61,267 nt of DNA from a virus (Duplodnaviria; Caudoviricetes), in the IMG/VR virus record IMGVR_UViG_3300018080_000191, positions 1 through 61,267 of that record. The stretch is one strand, 5' to 3'. The translations under genes and the position numbers were made by a program. Below the pieces are notes generated by a model. It was not told the DNA's origin. It saw only the letters and a list, made by a program, of their open reading frames with translations, and ran no database searches. Positions 19,695 through 44,716 of the stretch are shown in pieces; within the stretch, counting starts at the first letter, position 1; the number at the start of each line of letters is the position of its first letter.

Positions 19695-19765
19695 AGCGGG
19701 GTAGAGTAGTGGTTACTCGGGGGTCTCATACGCCCTCCAGGCTGGTTCAATTCCAGCCCCCGCCA
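19695..19765 (+). tRNA. tRNA-Met(CAT), initiator-like, CCA not encoded
   Basis: Cloverleaf: acceptor AGCGGGG/CCCCGCC, D stem GAGT/ACTC, anticodon stem GGGGT/GCCCT with loop CTCATAC, T stem GCTGG/CCAGC with loop TTCAATT, discriminator A. Confidence 0.9.
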
Positions 19766-21247: not shown

Positions 21248-21275
21248 ATTTTTTAAGGAAAGTTCCTTAAAAAAT
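21248..21275. promoter_or_regulatory. perfect 13-bp inverted repeat (putative operator)
   Basis: ATTTTTTAAGGAA-AG-TTCCTTAAAAAAT, 22 bp upstream of the -35 box. Confidence 0.6.
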
Positions 21276-21297: not shown

Positions 21298-21326
21298 TTG
21301 ACAAGTGGTGAAGAATGTAATATAAT
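21298..21326 (+). promoter_or_regulatory. consensus sigma70-type promoter
   Basis: TTGACA-17 bp-TATAAT, exact consensus. Confidence 0.9.
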
Positions 21327-24600: not shown

Positions 24601-27407
24601 CACTGGTCGTATATCACGGGACAACAGCAGAGGGCTTTACCGAGTTCGCAGCCGGTAGCGATGTTTCAGGGGAGAGCGATGAATATTATCGTACTGGTAG
24701 TGGTGGCGATCCTACAACTTTTCTCGGAAGCCATTTTGCAGACAGCTCCCTGGTCGCGGGGAAGTTTGCACGGGGCCTGTACGGAGAGCGGGAGTTTTCT
24801 GATAAGGGTGGCAGGATTATGCCGGTTTATCTGAAGATGGAGAACCCGCTGAGGGTTGACGAATCAGAGATGTTTGATATGATGTATCGAGAGTCATATA
24901 ATGCGCCCATTATCGAGAGTATCCTAGAGGGGGAAGCGTATGACGAAGATGTTGAGCCAGAGGAGATTTACGAGCGGTATGATACAGATGAGAAATACAG
25001 GAAAGATATAAATAAGCGAGCTCTCGAGGAGGAGAATCGGGCAGAGGAGCCCATATTTGAGCTCGCACAGGAAATGGCAGATACACTCAGGTCGAAACTG
25101 ATAGATGATGGCCATGACGGTATTATCTATGATAATGAAGTTGAGGGTGGGGTGTCGTATGTCGTATTCGAGTCAACACAGGTGAAATCAGCGACAGGGA
25201 ATCGGGGGACGTTTGATCCGAAGAATCCGGATATAACAAAGGCGTTTCGGGAGATCCTGAAGGCCCCGAAAGACGTTGCGAAGCTAGTTAAGAAAGTTAT
25301 TATCAATAAGAGAGGGAAAAAACAGACCGTTTACGTGAAGCCAGTCGGAGCTAAATCGGAGCCCAAAACGAGGCCTGTTAAGACGGAGTTCAAAAAGAAG
25401 TCCAAGAAGGGGAAAGCAATACACTCTCCTGCGTTCAAGGCCTGGTTCGGGGATTGGGAAAAGGGAGAAGGGAGCCGGGTGGTTAAGAAGGACGGAAGCC
25501 CGCAGGAAACCCATCACCTGGAGAGTTATCCGGACGAAAAGGGAGAGCCGATTAAGGTGTATCACGGGACGGAGAAGGGTGGTTTTACTGAATTTGATGA
25601 AAATGCGATAGATCCCGATGCCCTCTATGGAGCCGGATTTTATTTTACTGAGGATGAAAAAATTGCAGAAGAGTATGCTGGGGGTGGCTTGTATGATGGC
25701 GAGTATACGGTTGTAAAAAGCGATGGCATGAATCATGTGCTATCGTTTGAAGATGAGGACGATCTCGACGATTATACTTCGCAGATGCCAGATGACGAGT
25801 ATAATGCTGCAAAGCAGTACGAGAAAGACGGAAAGTATTTTCTGGAATATAGTGCTGGTCCCGAGAGCGAGGTTTACGAGGTTTATCTTAATATCAGAAA
25901 GCCATTTGATATTGATAATGGTATCATACCGTTTGAGAAATTGAGAGATTTTGTTGAAAAGACAGGTTTGCTGAAGCAGGAAAAGAAAAAGAGTGCCATG
26001 GGGCAGTTGGATGATCCCGATAAACAGGTTGACTATAAATACGAGCATGCGAGTTGGTTGCTCGGTGGTGATGTAGACATAGTAAATGCATTGCTGAAGT
26101 CTATTGGTCATGATGGTCTTACCCATATGGGTGGCAGGAGAGTGGGTACTCGCGATCATCGCGTCTGGATAGCCTTTAAGCCAAACCAGATAAAAGCCAC
26201 AACCGCAGAAGAGTTTGATCCCGGCAGCAATAACATCTATAAGGCAGTGGAGCAGCTCAGGAGCCTTCTGGAAATTGACCTCTCTGGGCTGGGGGAGCGA
26301 TATAGTCATGACTTTAAGAGGTTAGGGACTGAGTTCGGGGACGTGCTCAGGAAGGGGATAAGCTATGCTGATTTGAGGAAGCGCGTTAAAGCCACTGAAA
26401 CCAGCCCAACCGAGGCCCAAAAGCGGGCCGGAAACTATAAAAAGGCGAAGATCCCCTGGAATGGTCTGACTATTTCAATCGAAAACCCGAAGGGTTCCTA
26501 TCGCTCGGGTGTTGATAGGAGCGGGCAGGAGTGGAAATCAAAACTGCATCATGATTATGGCTATATAAACCGGACCGAGGGAGGGGACGGAGATCATGTT
26601 GATGTATTCATCGGCAAGGATGTTGATAGCGATAAAGTTTTCGTCATTAACCAGGTGGATCCGGAGACTGGCCGATTCGATGAGCACAAGGTCATGATCG
26701 GGTTTATGAGTGAGGACGATGCGAGATCTGGATATTTGGCAAACTATGAGGATGGCTGGAATGGAATCCGTGATATTGTTACCCTCTCTTTGGACCAGTT
26801 TAAGAAGTGGTTGAATTTTGGAAATACAAAGGAGTCGTTGATAAGAGAGGCCATTGCAAAGCTTAATACTGTTATTAAGGCAGCAAAAGATAAATCGCAT
26901 CTTACGCCGACCAAAGTTACCAGGAAAGATGGGGTAATTACTACGGTTTACAAGAATCTCAACAAAAAGGTAGAGATAGCAAATTTTGTACGTGATGCAA
27001 TAAAAAATCCACACGGGTATCCTCATACTTTTGAATATGGAGAGGTTGACAAAAAGGAGAATGAGAGGTATAAGAAAATCGGCTTTGACCTGGAGGGGTA
27101 TATACACGTATTAGATAGGTCGGGTATCAGGCATATACATAAAAGGCATGGTGTTGGAAATGAAACGGACCAGAAACTTTCTCCGGTTAAAACCAAACAT
27201 ATCAGGATGATTCCCGATATAGTGAAAAATCCGGACCGCGTTGAATATGCTGGTACTGATGATACTATGGGGCATGATGTTTTACGATATATTCGTAGAA
27301 TAAACGGGGACGTAGTTTATGTTGAAGAAATAAGGATTGGGAAGAAAAGGGTGTTGGCAACGAAGAGTATGAGAATAGAAAAGAGGAGACGCTCTGATGT
27401 CAAATGA
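21648..27407 (+). CDS. 1919-aa polyvalent protein: C39-like, zincin, JAB/RadC, zincin, 2x ART-PolyVal-like, inorganic PPase, PBECR-like RNase
   Basis: HELGH at 22215; HNHPSG..PS.AD at 23226; HERGH at 24180; FKKWFG..VYHGT at ~24552-25240 and FKAWFG..VYHGT..GFYFT at ~25434-26240; PTEAQKRAGNY...IENPKG...DGDHVDVF at ~26400-26820; IRHIHKRHG...IPDIVKNPD...YVEEI at ~26970-27385. Confidence 0.88.
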   Translation: MKSDLAEFKSFIGRDFSEIKYHLHTQGYEFAWGSTYSINDVRKAIMDRQPVFVQLSGHTGLVVGENPDSLVVHDGRKILEIPDSRLMKSWTGNAIIVQESVNETENNGNPLVLFTPERDNWPAEWELQKLATNRILRTLQLDEPFLPPHPIIVSYIKPTQNEISKGIKAMLLGAEVNIYDPSDPLTEFLHELGHLYWYTRLTKEEKQEWIDYHNTLSKKNASAIFAGKAGMQTVEEAFATIYMWYLKSKVIHEGYGRILRFQEPKGLGLLENVVERVRYENQAVDKYRENEQLLAEWVEAEPRVMRLAGGSRIIKARFGSKPAEKIPFPRVIKHTINEREDGRVFITVNEGLLKGKELVVKDGFIELGYEPLLKAGPGKKDTTKLVRKVITNKKGHRQTVWVRPGEKEKKRKPSSGGGLKEKLLASTINEDYKKEWEENNRLTLLGQKVTNANDLAYLARIYRNPQYETFRIFMLNDKDEVVAQTGISLRLPGAATPFVEPECPPRSWMYYKSMMKNSGATKYYLLHNHPSGRTTPSMADEVATRAFINQIPGFKAHIVINHDEYTKIQAFPDSSQLDIEKSHYSPQGDDKYHQKGEVHPLVGVKILDPDQLVDLAKHAEFNSKRYISLISTDVYGKVSGIMQVPKNYFRGFADKGYDSIRDFARTVGSMRIFMIGGGEYGKWEKNYDWSTVYRNAIKRGYLTDAVTGDGKSLSERVAYIRDIRPDPGYLMGVKFSEAKPTVHEAVRKARDFILKAKDISKLVKKVIINKKGKQQTVYVKPSSGEYKKKPWELTKEEFIKNTPEGFNYSNLIKHEADRHTKPPLITVGDKFFKLTPIEREHVIIHERGHELSDKMLKDGSAFKLADSGAFGPKYKDGTINGINGQFTPGENVAEAYAMLISNYRWLKEKYPIVYKKIGEKAMSYGLDIPFAVQKELGIIKVDKNQSKKKKKVKILPQKVRENIVEKAEFKKWFGNSKVVDDKGKPLVVYHGTTAEGFTEFAAGSDVSGESDEYYRTGSGGDPTTFLGSHFADSSLVAGKFARGLYGEREFSDKGGRIMPVYLKMENPLRVDESEMFDMMYRESYNAPIIESILEGEAYDEDVEPEEIYERYDTDEKYRKDINKRALEEENRAEEPIFELAQEMADTLRSKLIDDGHDGIIYDNEVEGGVSYVVFESTQVKSATGNRGTFDPKNPDITKAFREILKAPKDVAKLVKKVIINKRGKKQTVYVKPVGAKSEPKTRPVKTEFKKKSKKGKAIHSPAFKAWFGDWEKGEGSRVVKKDGSPQETHHLESYPDEKGEPIKVYHGTEKGGFTEFDENAIDPDALYGAGFYFTEDEKIAEEYAGGGLYDGEYTVVKSDGMNHVLSFEDEDDLDDYTSQMPDDEYNAAKQYEKDGKYFLEYSAGPESEVYEVYLNIRKPFDIDNGIIPFEKLRDFVEKTGLLKQEKKKSAMGQLDDPDKQVDYKYEHASWLLGGDVDIVNALLKSIGHDGLTHMGGRRVGTRDHRVWIAFKPNQIKATTAEEFDPGSNNIYKAVEQLRSLLEIDLSGLGERYSHDFKRLGTEFGDVLRKGISYADLRKRVKATETSPTEAQKRAGNYKKAKIPWNGLTISIENPKGSYRSGVDRSGQEWKSKLHHDYGYINRTEGGDGDHVDVFIGKDVDSDKVFVINQVDPETGRFDEHKVMIGFMSEDDARSGYLANYEDGWNGIRDIVTLSLDQFKKWLNFGNTKESLIREAIAKLNTVIKAAKDKSHLTPTKVTRKDGVITTVYKNLNKKVEIANFVRDAIKNPHGYPHTFEYGEVDKKENERYKKIGFDLEGYIHVLDRSGIRHIHKRHGVGNETDQKLSPVKTKHIRMIPDIVKNPDRVEYAGTDDTMGHDVLRYIRRINGDVVYVEEIRIGKKRVLATKSMRIEKRRRSDVK

Positions 27408-27453
27408 CGACCTCCAGCTCTACGGCCCCAACCCGCTTTCCCCTCTTTCCCGT
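27378..27453 (-). ncRNA. candidate ~75-nt antisense structured RNA over the RNase 3' end
   Basis: 12-bp closing stem 27439-27450/27378-27389 pairs fully only on the minus strand (two G-U pairs), directly downstream of a minus-strand promoter. Confidence 0.45.
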
Positions 27454-27459
27454 AAAGAT

Positions 27460-27488
27460 AATTTACTATTACTTAGCGTGAATGTCAA
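27460..27488 (-). promoter_or_regulatory. minus-strand sigma70-type promoter
   Basis: TTGACA (27488-27483), 17 bp, TAAATT (27465-27460). Confidence 0.6.
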
Positions 27489-27764: not shown

Positions 27765-27809
27765 TCGACACGTATATTTTATGTGTAGATAATCGCTTTA
27801 AAAGCGATT
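27765..27809 (+). promoter_or_regulatory. possible promoter overlapped by a palindrome
   Basis: TCGACA-17 bp-GATAAT, followed by AATCGCTTT-A-AAAGCGATT (27791-27809). Confidence 0.4.
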
Positions 27810-27844
27810 GTTTCGAAATGGGTATTTATATAGGGGATAAAATC

Positions 27845-30800
27845 ATGAAATTAGCGGAACTACTCAATAAAGCTCGAAAAAATACGTTACGCAAAGGGAA
27901 ACCTCCCGGGAAGCTTGATACGTCTAAACTGGTCAGGAAACAGATCATTGACAAAACAGGGCGTAGAACGACCAAGTGGGTCCGTGTCGTAAAAGAGGAA
28001 AAGAAGTCTATCTGGGATATTATTTCCGGTTTTTTTAAGAATCGGGATCCAATACGTGTAGTGCATGAAGAATATGACAAGCACAGAATAAAAGATAGGT
28101 TTGGGATAAACATGAAGTCCTGGACAGAACATTTTGTCGAATATTTCAAGAATAAGGCGAAGTGGGATAAGCTGTTCGGTAAAACCAAAACTACTACCGG
28201 TGGTGGTGGCGGAAAAACCGGTGGTGGCGGTGGCAAAACTGGCGGTGGTGGGGAGAAGGCAACCCCAACGCTTAATCGCAATGTTATGAAGTTTCTCTAT
28301 GAAACTTATGGAAATTTAAGGGAGGCAAAAGATGGAAAAGATCAACCTGGTGCTGGACGAGAGGTACTTTCCGAGGCTGGCGAGGATGAACGCGGAAAGG
28401 CTCAGGCAAAAGTTAGTGTCGCTGTGCCAGATGCACAACCTTCCGATCACGGAAGCCAATCTACGGTCAGTGGCAGCGGATCTGGAATCGGATCTGGCAA
28501 CAAGTCTTGGAAGCAAGGATTGAAAGAAATTAAGGATATTCGGGCCCAATGCCTGGAGATTCTTAAAAAGTCTGATGAGGAAATAACTTACGATGATTTA
28601 CAGATTTTGCGACAATATGAGGGCATTGGCGGAGTTGAGAGCGAGGGTCGTGGGATATTAGATCAGTATTACACTCCCCACAAAGTTATTAGCAAGATGT
28701 GGGATTTGGTAGCCAAGTATCCCCAACGCAGGCAATCTGGGAAGTGGAACTCTCGCGTCCTGGAGCCTGCAGCAGGAACAGGGCGGTTCGCGGATGGTAT
28801 AAGCGGGGATGTAAATTTTGACATGATAGAGCCGGATCCGATTGCAGCTCGGATCAACAAGTTGTTGCATCCGGATGCAAACGTTATTGAGGGTGAATTT
28901 CAATCACTGTTTTTTAAAGAGGGCCGTCTCCATCAGAAAAAATATACGGGCAAAAAGTATGATGTCGTTATCGGTAATCCGCCGTATAGGCCCTATGAGG
29001 GTAAATGGAAAGGTATGGGTGAGGGTAAAGGCCATACCCAGATGCACGAATATTTCATTGATCGGGGCCTGGATACCCTGATAGCAGGTGGTATCCTGGC
29101 CATGATAGTGCCATCAGGTTTCCTCAGAAGTGCGAACAGTAAAGTAAAAGAGGAGATCGCCAAGAAGGGTCGGTTGCTTGAGGCGTATAGGCTCCCGAAC
29201 GGTACATTTAACACAACGGCGGTGGGGACCGATATCCTGATTATCCGAAAAGAAGAAGGCGGGAGCACCGAGCACTTTTTTGATGACAATTACTTTAATG
29301 ACAATCCCACACATATCCTGGGAGAGGAGTCTACGAGGACGGGCAAGTTTGGTCCCGAAAGGTTTGTATCTCTGAGGACCGGCCAAACGTTTGATAGCAC
29401 TATTGACATGATTAACGTAAATGCTGTTGAGCGTGTTGGCATGGGTGAGAAAACGCTATCTGAAGAGGCAAAGGAAAAAATATCTCTGGCATTGATGGGG
29501 AATAAAAACGCCGAAAAGGAGATACATGAAGAGCACAAGGACAACTTCAAAGAAGCCCACAAGGGTGAGAGCGTGGAACTCTTGGAGTCGCTCCTGGGAG
29601 CCGAGAAGGCGAACGAGGCCAAGGACCAGGCCAGGGTAGAAGCCCTCCAAGAGATGGTTGATCAAAGGAAAAAGACAAAATATAATGATGTTGGCACCTG
29701 GAATCTGAAGAAGTTTCACAGGGAATTGAGCGAAAGTATAAAAACTGGTGGTGTTCACGAAAGCGACCTGGAGCAGGCCAAAAAGAACCTGACCGAGATG
29801 GAAGTGGAACTGCAAAAAAGGCAGGAGTGGACGAAAGAGGATGAGAAAAAGGCGAAGCAGCGCGAGAAGATTAAAAAGCAGGAAGCAACGGCACCGGAAG
29901 CCACAGAGAAGAAGAAAAAGGAGTTCTATACTCTAGATGAGTTTATAAAACAATATGGCGGAAAGTTTGACGAGCTTGACCTGAAGATATGGCGACATAC
30001 CAAAAATGATGGCTCGATAGATATATCGCAGACCCCCTGGAACAAGGACAGTAAGGGCCGTATCTGCTATTTGGGTGGAAAGTATTATCACAATACGAAC
30101 TATGCCAGCGGGAATGTAATTGAAAAGCTTAAAAAACTTGAAGAGGAAAAAGACGAGATCATAAAGAAGTTTGGCAAGGAGCAATATACGAGACAGAAGG
30201 AACTTCTGGAGAGCGTCAAACCCGAATATAAAACCACGAAAGAAATTGTGATGTCCCCATTGTCCAGTTTTGTGAGGGATTTTAGATTCGAATGGGATAA
30301 AGACGAAAACGATAGTCAAAAGTCCCTGATTCAGTTATTCTGGGATTGGTGTGGTGTCGAAAGTAATTGGAGGGGAACCAACTTTAACGGTGGTGCCACT
30401 CCTCACGATCTTACTGGCGGGATAGATTGGGATGATATTGTTGAATATGTCAACAGGGTACCCAGGAAAAAGTCGCAGCATGAAACGAAGGAATTTGTTG
30501 GACAAATTAAAGCCAAAAGGCGTGAAAATGCGGAGAGGCTGTTTAATCGCTTTATCCAGGAGGGGCTCTCGGGTAAGTATAAAGAGGATTTTGAGAATAG
30601 ATTCAACGAGCGTTTCAACAGCAATGTAAATGCCGATTTTGCGAATATCCCGGTATTTGTGGATGGGTTATCAAAAACCTTTAAGGGAGACAAGCTACAG
30701 GTAAAGGACGTTCAGCTCGAGGGTGCAGCGTATTTGACCAATAAGGGGGCCGGACTATTGGCGTATGAGGTTGGGGTTGGAAAGACTTTAACGGGTATTC

Positions 30801-33238
30801 TGGCCACTGTGCAGCAGTTACAGTTGGGGCGTGCTAAAAAACCGGTTATTGTCGTTCCAAAGGCAACTTATAAGGGATGGTTAAGCGAAATCCGGGACCT
30901 GTTCCCAAACCTGAAGATTAACGAGCTAGACAATTTACGTGGGTACAATAAAGATAATATGCCGGATATTAAAGATGGAACGCTATCGATATGTACCTAC
31001 CAGGCTCTTGACAACCTGACATTTAAAGATGATACGCTTTTTGAGTTGTCAGAGGATCTTGAGGATACTATGGCCAATCCGTTTGGTGTTGACATAAAGG
31101 CCGGTAGTGCAGAAGAGAAGCGCAGAGAAAAGGAACGGGAGCGTATAAAGACAAAATTAGGCGAGGGAGCGAGCGTTGTAAGTGACGTTATTCATGTTGA
31201 GGATCTGGGATTTGACCATATTACGGTTGATGAAGCTCATAACTTTAAGAACGTGTTCTCGAAAGCTGAGGCCGAAAAGAATCAGGATGGCTCGAAGGCT
31301 GCAAACGAATATTCTACAGTAACGGGATCGTCCAGTGTGCGCGGGTCTAAGATGTTTATGTTATCGCAGTATATACAGCGCAAGAATGAGGGGCGAAATG
31401 TGTTTATGTTGACAGCAACACCGTTTACGAACTCCCCCTTGGAGATTTATAACATGCTATCATTCATGGCGCGGGATAAGCTGAAAGAGATGGGAATTTA
31501 CAACATCAATCAGTTTCTCAGTGCTTATGCCAAGGTCCAGGACGAATGGGCAGTGTCTCATACGGGACAAATTACGAAAAAGGGCGTAATCAAGGAGTTC
31601 CATAATGTTGGTGCTCTTCAAAAGCTGATAAAGCAGTATATCGATTTTAAGGGAATCGATGACATTAACGAAAGAGCTGGTTACGAAGCCATAAAGAGAC
31701 CGAAGAAATTTCAGCATCTTGTCGAGCTCCCGAATAATCCCGAGTTGGAAAGCATACTAGAGGGTGAACAGAGAAGAATGACGGATATCGAAGAAATACG
31801 AAAGGGCGGGGTGCTGAAGGGGATTAACACGTCTAGGACGGCAACGCTCTCTCCGGCCCTAGTGGCAAGCAAGCTCGATGATTTTCATAGTGCTGATGTT
31901 CGGACAAAAAAATGGGATTTGGTTGAGGACAGCCCAAAGCTGAAATTTAGTTTTGGCCTCACCGCCGAAATGTACAAAAAGAGGCCGGATTTGGGGCATG
32001 TAATATACATTCCCCAGGGGGTGGAGAAATTCAAGGAGATGACCGAGCACCTGGTTAAGCAGGGCGTTCCCAAGGATGCAATTGCAACTATTCATGGCGG
32101 TATGAGTGGCGATAAGGGAGCTGAGCGAATTGAGGCGATTAAGAAAGAATTTAACGATCCTGACGGGAAAATTAAGGTTTTAATCGGCAGCTCCACTATT
32201 CTGGAGGGTATCAATCTGAACGGCAATACGGCATTTTTGCATAATACAATGTTGGGGTGGAACGCCAGCGAAACGGTGCAGCTCGAGGGCCGGTCATGGA
32301 GACAGGGAAATAGACAGGAGAATGTTCACATAATTACTCCCGTTATTCATGATTCGATTGATTCTGTGATGTATCAAAAACATGATGAAAAAAAATCGCG
32401 GTTTGCGGAAATCCATAACTTCAAGGGCGATAAAATGGATGCTGGTGAGATTGACTACAAGGACGTAAAGTTTGATCTTATTAAGGATCCGGAGAAAAAA
32501 GCTCAATTTAGGATCGAGCTCGAAACCGAGAGGTTGAACGATCAAAAGCTGGAGAAGAGAATTTTGAAAGACGGGATTGGCAATATTGCCAAGCAGCGTG
32601 ATGAAAGTATAAATGAGATACCGAGACTGGAAGAGGATATAAAAGAGCATGATCAGAAGATGGAGGAGCTCAAAGGGGCTATTGATAAGGCGCGAGCTGA
32701 AATTAAGGAGATGCCAAACGAAACTGATGAGCAGCTTAGTGCGATTGAGCGAAAAAAGAGGTTTGAGGTTGACTATGTAAAGGATGACTACGATCACGAG
32801 AAGCGATATCGGGATAATAAAAAGAAAAAGATTGAAACCCTGAAGGTGCAGATTGAGGTTTTTAATAAAAAAATGAACGAGTTGGGTGGCGAGGATATCA
32901 ATGCCACCATTGCGAATCTTGACCAGGAGATAGACGAGATCAATAATACGATTAAGGGATTCCAGGAGAAAAAGAGCCAATATGTCGAGGAGGCAAAAAG
33001 GGATATAGAGCGCAAGAAAAAAGTGGTCCCTGGCGTAAATGAACAAATAACCAAATATGCTGAAATGCTATTGGAAAACGTGGAGTACAGCAAGGAGTAT
33101 CAGGAATTACTCGAGGAGTCTAAGAAAAAGTATAAGGTTGGCAAAAAGGTTGTAAAGGCACATGTTCTGCCAAAAGCCAGAAAAGAGCCCCGGACGTATA
33201 TTTTTGGGGGTGTAACATATAGAATGATAGGAGAGTAA
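27845..33238 (+). CDS. DarB-like protein: N6-adenine methyltransferase plus SNF2/SF2 helicase
   Basis: MTase QYYTP, LEPAAGTG, VIGNPPY, AYRLP..TF; helicase EVGVGKT, DEAHNFKN, LTATP, EGINL, QLEGRSWRQGN; C-terminal coiled coil. Confidence 0.9.
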   Translation: MKLAELLNKARKNTLRKGKPPGKLDTSKLVRKQIIDKTGRRTTKWVRVVKEEKKSIWDIISGFFKNRDPIRVVHEEYDKHRIKDRFGINMKSWTEHFVEYFKNKAKWDKLFGKTKTTTGGGGGKTGGGGGKTGGGGEKATPTLNRNVMKFLYETYGNLREAKDGKDQPGAGREVLSEAGEDERGKAQAKVSVAVPDAQPSDHGSQSTVSGSGSGIGSGNKSWKQGLKEIKDIRAQCLEILKKSDEEITYDDLQILRQYEGIGGVESEGRGILDQYYTPHKVISKMWDLVAKYPQRRQSGKWNSRVLEPAAGTGRFADGISGDVNFDMIEPDPIAARINKLLHPDANVIEGEFQSLFFKEGRLHQKKYTGKKYDVVIGNPPYRPYEGKWKGMGEGKGHTQMHEYFIDRGLDTLIAGGILAMIVPSGFLRSANSKVKEEIAKKGRLLEAYRLPNGTFNTTAVGTDILIIRKEEGGSTEHFFDDNYFNDNPTHILGEESTRTGKFGPERFVSLRTGQTFDSTIDMINVNAVERVGMGEKTLSEEAKEKISLALMGNKNAEKEIHEEHKDNFKEAHKGESVELLESLLGAEKANEAKDQARVEALQEMVDQRKKTKYNDVGTWNLKKFHRELSESIKTGGVHESDLEQAKKNLTEMEVELQKRQEWTKEDEKKAKQREKIKKQEATAPEATEKKKKEFYTLDEFIKQYGGKFDELDLKIWRHTKNDGSIDISQTPWNKDSKGRICYLGGKYYHNTNYASGNVIEKLKKLEEEKDEIIKKFGKEQYTRQKELLESVKPEYKTTKEIVMSPLSSFVRDFRFEWDKDENDSQKSLIQLFWDWCGVESNWRGTNFNGGATPHDLTGGIDWDDIVEYVNRVPRKKSQHETKEFVGQIKAKRRENAERLFNRFIQEGLSGKYKEDFENRFNERFNSNVNADFANIPVFVDGLSKTFKGDKLQVKDVQLEGAAYLTNKGAGLLAYEVGVGKTLTGILATVQQLQLGRAKKPVIVVPKATYKGWLSEIRDLFPNLKINELDNLRGYNKDNMPDIKDGTLSICTYQALDNLTFKDDTLFELSEDLEDTMANPFGVDIKAGSAEEKRREKERERIKTKLGEGASVVSDVIHVEDLGFDHITVDEAHNFKNVFSKAEAEKNQDGSKAANEYSTVTGSSSVRGSKMFMLSQYIQRKNEGRNVFMLTATPFTNSPLEIYNMLSFMARDKLKEMGIYNINQFLSAYAKVQDEWAVSHTGQITKKGVIKEFHNVGALQKLIKQYIDFKGIDDINERAGYEAIKRPKKFQHLVELPNNPELESILEGEQRRMTDIEEIRKGGVLKGINTSRTATLSPALVASKLDDFHSADVRTKKWDLVEDSPKLKFSFGLTAEMYKKRPDLGHVIYIPQGVEKFKEMTEHLVKQGVPKDAIATIHGGMSGDKGAERIEAIKKEFNDPDGKIKVLIGSSTILEGINLNGNTAFLHNTMLGWNASETVQLEGRSWRQGNRQENVHIITPVIHDSIDSVMYQKHDEKKSRFAEIHNFKGDKMDAGEIDYKDVKFDLIKDPEKKAQFRIELETERLNDQKLEKRILKDGIGNIAKQRDESINEIPRLEEDIKEHDQKMEELKGAIDKARAEIKEMPNETDEQLSAIERKKRFEVDYVKDDYDHEKRYRDNKKKKIETLKVQIEVFNKKMNELGGEDINATIANLDQEIDEINNTIKGFQEKKSQYVEEAKRDIERKKKVVPGVNEQITKYAEMLLENVEYSKEYQELLEESKKKYKVGKKVVKAHVLPKARKEPRTYIFGGVTYRMIGE
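28196..28258 (+). repeat. 21-nt tandem repeat encoding TGGGGGK linker (~3 copies)
   Basis: TGGGGGK TGGGGGK TGGGGEK. Confidence 0.75.
28332..28523 (+). CDS. candidate overprinted 63-aa gene inside the DarB-like linker
   Basis: GGGAGG SD 7 nt before ATG; helical-looking product; the host frame here is a low-complexity linker. Confidence 0.4.
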   Translation: MEKINLVLDERYFPRLARMNAERLRQKLVSLCQMHNLPITEANLRSVAADLESDLATSLGSKD

Positions 33239-44224: not shown

Positions 44225-44313
44225 AGGGGGGTCTCCCCAATCGAACAGTCTCCGGACGGTGGCGTGCCTTACAACAGTAAGGAGTAGAGCGGGGAGACAA
44301 AACAAAATAAGAT

Positions 44314-44686: not shown

Positions 44687-44716
44687 ACGGGCGTGCTGGT
44701 TTTTCAGCACGCCCGT
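44687..44716. other. perfect 12-bp intergenic hairpin
   Basis: ACGGGCGTGCTG-6 nt-CAGCACGCCCGT; no U-tract on either strand. Confidence 0.65.

Follow-up and report, generated by a model that had tools for sequence, protein, structure and literature searches.

Type III toxin-antitoxin systems (ToxIN, CptIN and TenpIN) combine an endoribonuclease toxin with a small structured RNA, which is the sole partner of the toxin and inhibits it by direct RNA-protein contact. Their RNA gene is located upstream of the toxin on the same strand, and its tandem repeats are cut by the toxin. In the type I pairs txpA/RatA and bsrG/SR4, a convergent antitoxin RNA overlaps the 3' end of the toxin gene. Most type I toxins are small membrane peptides, and their antitoxin RNAs work through base pairing; RalR/RalA has an enzyme as its toxin. 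In CdiA and Rhs proteins, polymorphic-toxin C-terminal cassettes are followed by a downstream immunity gene. Here, we analysed a candidate small RNA gene on the minus strand (27377-27488) at the 3' end of a phage gene whose product ends in a PBECR3 domain, a predicted RNase. The gene lies in IMG/VR record IMGVR_UViG_3300018080_000191 (estimated completeness 46%), and the whole stretch of 61,267 bases is called the window below. The sequencing run associated with the record, possibly its source sample, is labelled sediment metagenome.

C-terminal toxin cassettes with a downstream immunity gene are also described, in passages of PMC5576092, for the MuF toxins of temperate phages. PBECR is a predicted RNase that is injected together with the DNA (Iyer et al. 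2017, PMC5512222), and the passages of that paper used here mention no RNA partner for it. Among the predicted RNases in polyvalent proteins of phages and plasmids, PBECR domains rank with the commonest. On balance, and with modest confidence, we read the minus strand at the end of the window gene as a small RNA gene, a divergent member of a PBECR3-linked RNA family and a candidate antidote for the RNase.

Convergent RNAs behind C-terminal PBECR3 domains

A six-sequence alignment served to collect 150 distantly related PBECR3 loci, of which 29 were viral, 41 genomic and 80 metagenomic. The domain was located by a profile search on the translations and called C-terminal when its end lay no more than 40 amino acids (aa) from the stop. 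It was C-terminal in 85 loci, internal in 64 and cut off in one, and 61 of the 85 C-terminal cases were solo proteins of at most 260 aa. The DNA downstream of the C-terminal loci carries a conserved sequence on the opposite strand. Promoter boxes were counted in 67 unique C-terminal loci, 62 of which have a G+C content below 0.55. We found the Bacteroidetes-type box TAnnTTTG on the minus strand, 50-150 nucleotides (nt) past the stop, in 50 of the 62 low-GC loci, compared with 5/62 on the plus strand; random 100-nt stretches taken from these loci have it in 8% of cases. In the solo loci, a terminator hairpin across the stop codon would end the transcript.

By eye, the RNAs fall into three sequence classes. 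Class A is seen in Bacteroidota and a few other bacteria, and also in phage contigs of high GC, where the proteins have 317 to 630 aa or more. Class B has sigma-70-type promoters and occurs in Melainabacteria and low-GC phage contigs. The gut-Bacteroidales class is a highly conserved convergent RNA of about 100 nt behind the solo PBECR3 genes of L042, L046, L088 and some 30 further loci from gut or rumen Bacteroidales. Its outer stem TCGCGG/CCGCGA covaries in L058, and it holds an inner CGU-RARGG-ACG hairpin. The classes follow the protein clades; in a quick, weakly supported tree of the domains, each of the three occupies a part of its own.

By the definition used here, class-A RNAs are placed on the opposite strand, no further than about -50 to +125 nt from the stop of the PBECR3-ended gene. 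The RNA 3' end of the relatives lies between -49 and +54 nt from the stop, and in class A a promoter box or -10-like hexamer is located 4-17 nt before the RNA. In L019, L081, L086, L061 and L101, as in the window, the last codons of the gene are covered by the predicted RNA. Among the unique large proteins with a C-terminal PBECR3 (n=11), class-A RNA was found by model in five (L019, L023, L081, L086, L132). Class B was seen by eye in three (L009, L073, L145) and a class-A-like RNA by eye in two (L026, L060), and one group had none (L123).

Covariance models of class A (R1, R2 and R3) were started from four sequences, and the window was never in the training set. Class A forms a three-way junction with a closing stem P1, a hairpin P2 (CGU-loop-ACG) and a hairpin P3. 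In alignment A9 (23 rows), which was fitted to the model so that its pairing counts lean towards the structure, 95.1% of the cells were paired, compared with 69.1±2.3% in column shuffles (0/500 reached the value) and 29-55% when the partner was slid. Both partners vary in every one of the six P1 pairs. P2 reads C-G, R-Y, U-A, with GC and AU exchanged in two rows; CGU-loop-ACG is found in 23/23 rows, with a loop of 5-6 nt and then U. The stretch from P2 to the P1 3' arm (P1') folds as one hairpin domain (P3) in 23/23 rows, and P3 is outside the model. G-rich tracts are a regular part of the RNA in the minus sense. The alignment favours the minus strand as the functional RNA in class A, because P1 holds six G-U cells versus one A-C cell and the P3 loops are often GCAA, GAAA or UUCG in the minus sense.

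R2 found held-out members at E 3.8e-9 to 0.012 (E-values of all these models are rough), together with extra copies in L019, L023 and L050. All 24 R3 matches were on the strand opposite the gene, and 23 of them were training rows. The gut-Bacteroidales class and class B went undetected by R2 and R3, and both are described by eye. Rfam gave no match at the gathering score in 20 related loci and nothing at the element at E<=1 in 13 loci. The sequence-only reading of the window had proposed collecting the sequence behind PBECR domains and looking for covariation. At the family level the outcome was positive: a structured, covarying RNA with its own promoter stands there in convergent orientation. 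From these alignments, we conclude that a predicted RNA family exists behind C-terminal PBECR3 domains and covaries.

In five whole genomes (16.7 Mb), R3 gave seven matches at E<=0.01, and 5/7 adjoin a PF18812 (PBECR3) gene convergently. Of six PF18812 genes above the cut-off in these genomes, five have an R3 match and the sixth has the RNA by eye. The two remaining matches were one orphan beside uvrA and one after an unrelated gene. The orphan (L152, G004:C355, 1216-1277, minus strand) is a class-A match of 33 bits; the 500-nt gap that contains it is flanked by uvrA and a membrane-protein-like open reading frame (ORF) of 303 aa and has no RNase ORF. This RNA may have been left behind after loss of the RNase gene. 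An intact module also adjoins uvrA in L069. The other match (L153, G003:C291, 1263-1321, minus strand; class A, 26 bits, E 0.0016) is convergent to a 227-aa ORF (546-1229). This ORF comes after a 183-aa ORF that runs off the locus start, and by eye both recall an ATPase-nuclease defence gene pair. The L153 match may be due to chance, or the RNA may pair with other nucleases too.

Among 20 neighbour proteins of solo modules, ten on either side, no Pfam family recurred and none was a known antitoxin; 18 of them match housekeeping or unrelated families, and two downstream ones have no Pfam match. L050, a Bernardetiaceae contig (1-3163), holds an array of PBECR3 paralogues at 114-329 (a 71-aa fragment), 1567-1881, 2089-2541 and 2746 onwards. 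RNA copies at 467-527, 1906-1972 and 2596-2647 stand one behind each of three PBECR3 genes, and the fourth gene is cut by the end of the locus. Between the L050 modules are two small minus-strand ORFs that overlap each other (715-963, 947-1258). In the high-GC viral contig L019 (1834-2727), three to four class-A RNA copies are located behind a 415-aa protein ending in PBECR3. The ORF fragments between these copies resemble the C-terminal tail of the PBECR3 protein, and fragments and copies together look like displaced cassettes.

Since the genome matches adjoin PF18812 genes, the neighbours differ and RNA copies accompany the L050 genes, the predicted RNase domain and the putative RNA appear to be one self-contained module where the domain ends the gene. 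The suggestion of the sequence-only reading that the RNA travels with the domain as one cassette holds where PBECR3 is C-terminal, but not in the 64 of 150 loci with an internal domain, where such a convergent RNA gene, placed behind a stop codon, is not possible.

The minus-strand element at the end of the window gene

The window gene encodes a protein with, in order, RadC/JAB, three ART-PolyVal stretches, InPase and a C-terminal PBECR3. Pfam scores were 194 bits for InPase, 152 for ART-PolyVal, 67.4 for PBECR3 (cut-off 30) and 28 for RadC. Four unrelated domain families are combined in one polypeptide, and the gene is located among virion genes. By these predicted domains the product is a textbook polyvalent protein in the sense of the passages of Iyer et al. 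2017 (PMC5512222). In a 24-sequence alignment (A1, window numbering), its PBECR3 has the invariant or near-invariant columns G33, H50, H55, E60, D84, K104, E115 and R117; for these, G33 aside, we infer a catalytic role after passages of PMC5512222. The best non-self PBECR3 match by protein search had 40% identity, and a sequence-profile search of the PDB gave no match.

A promoter-like site on the minus strand (TTGACA at 27488-27483, a 17-nt spacer, TAAATT at 27465-27460) is aimed at the gene end. The sequence-only reading had described this site as the only minus-strand promoter noticed. We confirmed the site at 27488-27460, but three further minus-strand sites also score 10/12. Downstream of it, GGAAAGAGGGGA (27450-27439) pairs with TCTCCTCTTTTC (27389-27378) in a stem of 12 base pairs (bp) with a 49-nt loop, and one added G-U pair lengthens the stem to 13 bp. 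The two G-U pairs of the 12-bp stem had been said to work only on the minus strand, and both are indeed A-C mismatches on the plus strand. The inner pairing reported with them was recovered as well, as two inner hairpins in the minimum-energy fold. The stop codon TGA (27405-27407) is located within the stem loop, and its complement lies in the loop of the P3 inner hairpin. By complementarity, the predicted RNA would span part of the 3' untranslated region, the stop codon and the final 6-10 codons of the gene, which correspond to 18-30 nt counted back from the end of the stop.

The 5' end of the candidate RNA is placed from the position of the promoter, and the 3' end given here is provisional. 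A descriptor written from the relatives finds 27377-27451 on the minus strand. In a scan by minimum free energy (MFE) only, on a 20-nt grid, the nearest minus-strand windows (starts 27361 and 27381) rank 728 and 329 of 6118, and the exact frame of the candidate RNA, at its tabulated energy, would outrank both. No tandem array was found at the site, where TRF gives just a 9-nt x 2.2 repeat at 27432-27451, and Rfam 15 gave no match at the candidate RNA, either at the gathering score or at E<=1. A tRNA-like or att site was set aside as an explanation of the element, since ARAGORN finds a tRNA in the window only at 19695-19765.

Read on the minus strand, the element consists of the promoter, 8 nt, P1 (13 bp), an AAG spacer, P2, UAGAG, a G-rich tract, P3, ...GAGCG and P1'. 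The closing P1, the short A-rich spacer and the CG just before the P1 3' arm are class-A marks. UAGAG after P2 is shared with L086 and L074, and the P3 inner hairpin resembles that of L069. The position of the RNA (27377-27453, with the stop at 27405-27407) is within the class-A range, and the -10 hexamer, a consensus match only, ends 8 nt before P1 in a class-A range of 4-17 nt. The 3' arm reaches 23-30 nt into the window gene, and that of L019 lies at -23. The MFE fold of the interior contains one unbranched hairpin domain (P3), like 23/23 relatives. Furthermore, the strongest C>G stretch of the window agrees with the G-rich sense of the family RNA.

The window PBECR3 falls in the clade that holds all 23 class-A loci, and 23/27 C-terminal rows there have the RNA. 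R3 aligns 27384-27444 on the minus strand at full length with 10.0 bits (rank 2 of 10 in the window), and E is 0.019 within the 261-nt zone where relatives carry the RNA. When P1 was held and the 49-nt interior was shuffled by dinucleotides, the two-hairpin interior of the family appeared in 14 of 3000 shuffles, by criteria that were set after the window had been seen. Taken together, these features suggest that the window RNA is probably a real, divergent member of class A. Taken by itself, the window does not support the idea of a structured antisense RNA raised in the sequence-only reading; the relatives back it in an indirect but real way, through a family with the same layout in the same clade behind C-terminal PBECR3, and the model score in the window does so only weakly.

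The proposed role is as follows. A host-type promoter would start a minus-strand RNA, about 75 nt long, which crosses the stop and extends into the gene as far as its last 6-10 codons. This RNA would fold as a three-way junction, with P1 of 12-13 bp, P2 as a short hairpin and P3 as a longer one. The putative RNA genes of the family are convergent, have their own promoter and stand directly behind PBECR3 wherever the domain ends the gene. This arrangement is shared by large phage proteins and by the solo RNases (about 160 aa) of Bacteroidota and other bacteria. The RNA would be the cognate antidote of the RNase and act by direct binding to the domain, in a type-III-like manner. In the producer cell, it would keep the RNase quiet while virions are made; in the next host, the injected protein, free of RNA, would act. 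P2 might mimic a substrate hairpin, which is speculation.

We infer an antidote role as the simplest reading, because the conserved His/Glu/Arg positions are retained in the solo proteins, which have no other conserved neighbour than the RNA. Direct binding seems more likely than pure antisense pairing, because the conserved parts (P2, P3 and the junction) are predicted to lie outside the overlap, and the overlap is short or absent in many loci.

The first alternative is that these are chance features in an ordinary intergenic spacer and that the phage has no RNA gene here, which we regard as rather unlikely. A hexamer pair and a purine/pyrimidine stem arise easily beside K/R/E-rich codons, and several results weigh against the small RNA gene. 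Promoter-like sites number 31 in 15 kb versus 25.5±5.8 in shuffles, and the present site scores 10/12. Minus-strand stems of at least 12 bp (at most two G-U pairs, loop of 3-60 nt) number seven versus 3.8±2.6 in shuffles. The minus-strand fold has a z of -1.65, and 12/200 shuffles fold equally well. By themselves, the promoter, stem and fold energy of the window are at chance level. Window-wide (61 kb), the R3 match has an E of 4.4, and a noise match at 31389-31439 is higher (13.2 bits). Part of the R3 score at the site stems from P1, the feature by which the site was chosen, and its 10.0 bits compare with 18.5 for the sole non-training match (L023:2081-2144) and 31.7-56.9 for the training rows. 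R2 gives 8.6 bits at the site and no window-wide match at E<=10, and R1 with default filters finds nothing in the window.

Further points on this side concern the structure and the relatives. The third pair of P2 is G-C versus U-A in 23/23 relatives, and the P2 loop has 7 nt. No canonical terminator follows P1'. The domain tree is a quick tree with weak support, 4/27 C-terminal rows of the same clade have no class-A RNA, and the nearest protein relative, L002 (42% identity), has PBECR3 internal. Single-protein scans of viral and metagenome contigs gave no close relatives of the phage, so no covariation is available for its own lineage. Since the domain is internal in 64/150 loci, a PBECR3 RNase can exist without this RNA partner. 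However, chance would have to reproduce jointly the strand, the distance to the stop, the promoter-P1 spacing, the order of the three helices, UAGAG after P2 and CG before P1'. It would also have to account for the E of 0.019 in the expected zone, the rarity of the interior architecture in shuffles and a site on the strongest C>G stretch in 61 kb.

The second alternative accepts a real family RNA but gives it no antidote role, and we consider it distinctly improbable. The RNA could be an antisense regulator or terminator of the polyvalent mRNA 3' end; it could serve the RNase as substrate or cofactor, or be the decaying remnant of a solo cassette that was captured. Such roles would fit the overlap with the last codons in the window and the five loci named above, and the terminator hairpins across the stop codon of solo loci, which can act both ways. 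They would also fit the extra L019 copies beside gene-end-like fragments, which suggest cassette turnover, the orphan RNA beside uvrA and the internal PBECR3 domains, which manage without RNA. However, P2 and P3 keep their sequence and structure from phylum to phylum and the overlapped segment is free to vary, which fits protein recognition better than antisense pairing, and the RNA would be the one conserved companion of an RNase that appears to be active.

On the plus strand, the same segment holds a C-rich, G-poor 60-mer that the sequence-only reading did not include. Its C-over-G value of +0.32, versus a mean of -0.10 with a standard deviation of 0.09, makes it the top 60-mer of the whole window, and it corresponds to the G-rich body of the candidate RNA on the minus strand. 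When reading continues in frame, the TGA is followed by a Pro-rich tail of 15 codons, RPPALRPQPAFPSFP, and then TAA (27408-27455); this tail resembles the linkers after internal PBECR3 domains of relatives. A function of the plus strand instead, with the C-rich tract as a Rho-loading (rut) site or as the relic of a Pro-rich interdomain linker after truncation, would fit this extreme composition, the weak plus-strand fold (z -0.50), the Pro-rich tail and the P/S/T-rich linkers into which relatives with internal PBECR3 continue, but it is highly unlikely, since it leaves the minus-strand promoter at family spacing and the P1-P2-P3 match unexplained, G-rich tracts are regular in the family RNA in the minus sense, C-terminal relatives have no general C-rich tract past the stop, and a rut site could coexist with an RNA gene.

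Table 1. Features at the end of the polyvalent protein gene, by position in the window
Feature	Position	Strand	Basis or remark
Polyvalent protein gene, 1919 aa	21648..27407	+	ORF, translation, Pfam
PBECR3 RNase domain (predicted), residues 1801-1915, last domain	27048..27392	+	Pfam PF18812
Candidate small RNA, ~75 nt, three-way junction P1-P2-P3	27377..27453	-	MFE -29.3 kcal/mol; R3 alignment; descriptor
P1 3' arm TCTCCTCTTTTCT	27377..27389	-	reverse complement of ..EKRR.. codons near gene end
P3 hairpin domain	27391..27420	-	MFE; inner hairpin GUCG-UCAUU-UGAC 27399-27411
C-rich, G-poor 60-mer, window extreme	27392..27451	+	C 27, G 8
P2 hairpin CGG-GUUGGGG-CCG, then UAGAG	27423..27435	-	MFE, descriptor, R3
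P1 5' arm GGGAAAGAGGGGA	27439..27451	-	stem search, descriptor
Sigma-70-like promoter TTGACA-17-TAAATT, aimed at gene end	27460..27488	-	consensus match
70-aa ORF, Shine-Dalgarno AAGGGAG, one hydrophobic segment	27545..27757	+	ORF listing

Neighbouring features of the phage record

The 3' side of the polyvalent gene consists of a 138-nt spacer, the 70-aa ORF, a hairpin (27787-27813) and the gene of a second polyvalent protein, with an Eco57I-type methylase and an SNF2 helicase. The sequence-only reading had stated that no obvious protein immunity gene follows. The 70-aa ORF does follow, but it has no homologue in 153 related loci. We rejected it as a protein immunity factor, since it has no Pfam family and no homologue near related PBECR3 genes; this ORF is outside the module in relatives. 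Within the second polyvalent protein, a 21-nt tandem repeat (28196-28251, plus strand, 2.7 copies) codes for a Gly-rich (GGGGGKT-like) linker repeat.

All long ORFs of the window are on the plus strand, where G exceeds C throughout. The virion genes include those for the large terminase, portal, major head, tail sheath and baseplate. These genes mark it as a tailed phage with a contractile tail. Upstream of the operon with the polyvalent gene lies a 12-bp hairpin without mismatches (21248-21275), and after it comes a sigma-70 promoter that matches the consensus perfectly, TTGACA-17-TATAAT (21298-21326, plus strand), which suggests that the host uses sigma-70-type promoters. The tRNA found by ARAGORN at 19695-19765 (plus strand) is a tRNA-Met (CAT) gene. 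The sole Rfam family of the window is a DUF3800-IX RNA (RF02968) at 44232-44301 on the plus strand, with 42.6 bits versus a gathering score of 36.8 and an E of 9.3e-06. The strongest stem of its kind in the window is a perfect 12-bp palindromic hairpin with a 6-nt loop at 44687-44716, which may be a terminator between gene blocks. An exact two-arm DNA pattern gave no close relative of the phage among viral contigs, and blastn against phage records matched the InPase region alone.

Significance and comparison with known systems

Solo PBECR3 genes and genes with a C-terminal PBECR3 have a conserved, covarying RNA behind them, in Bacteroidota, in Melainabacteria and in phage contigs of high GC, and no conserved protein partner is found there. 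Full-text literature searches (PBECR terms, RNA antitoxin with BECR) returned no description of an RNA partner; they did not cover paper supplements or one 2026 bioRxiv preprint on BECR RNases that mentions PBECR3, which may bear on novelty. The PBECR3-associated RNA family appears to be previously undescribed; it would count as a new family of RNAs and, with its RNase, as a candidate for a new class of toxin systems with an RNA antidote. Beyond the window, we put forward only tentatively that PBECR3 and its convergent three-way-junction RNA might be a new toxin-antidote module. In such a module, a structured RNA would be the immunity factor, perhaps as a pseudo-substrate hairpin in the active site, and would also serve swappable C-terminal cassettes on polyvalent and MuF-type proteins. 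If true, this would be the first RNA immunity element of a polymorphic-toxin-like system. Phages could then package an armed RNase in their virions and still avoid a premature death of the producer cell.

With the polyvalent proteins described in passages of PMC5512222, the window gene shares JAB, ART, InPase and PBECR3 and the setting among virion genes. It differs in the RNA partner that is postulated here, of which there is none in those passages.

The arrangement resembles type III systems in that an RNase has a structured RNA as its only partner, in a self-contained module found in phage-defence and mobile contexts, with inhibition as the proposed function. In contrast to type III, the RNA here is single-copy and convergent, with its own promoter, a three-way junction and no tandem array, and the toxin fold is BECR instead of the ToxN type. 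Like type I antitoxins, the predicted RNA runs towards the gene and overlaps its 3' end. However, its partner is an RNase domain of about 115 aa, in a 1919-aa protein or in a soluble protein of about 160 aa in relatives, and no small hydrophobic peptide. The overlap is also short or absent, whereas the core structure of the RNA is conserved across phyla. With polymorphic toxins, the locus shares a toxic C-terminal domain on a large carrier, followed by a protective gene, and L019 holds what look like remnants of displaced cassettes. In those systems the follower is a protein gene on the same strand, whereas here the conserved follower is a predicted RNA on the opposite strand.

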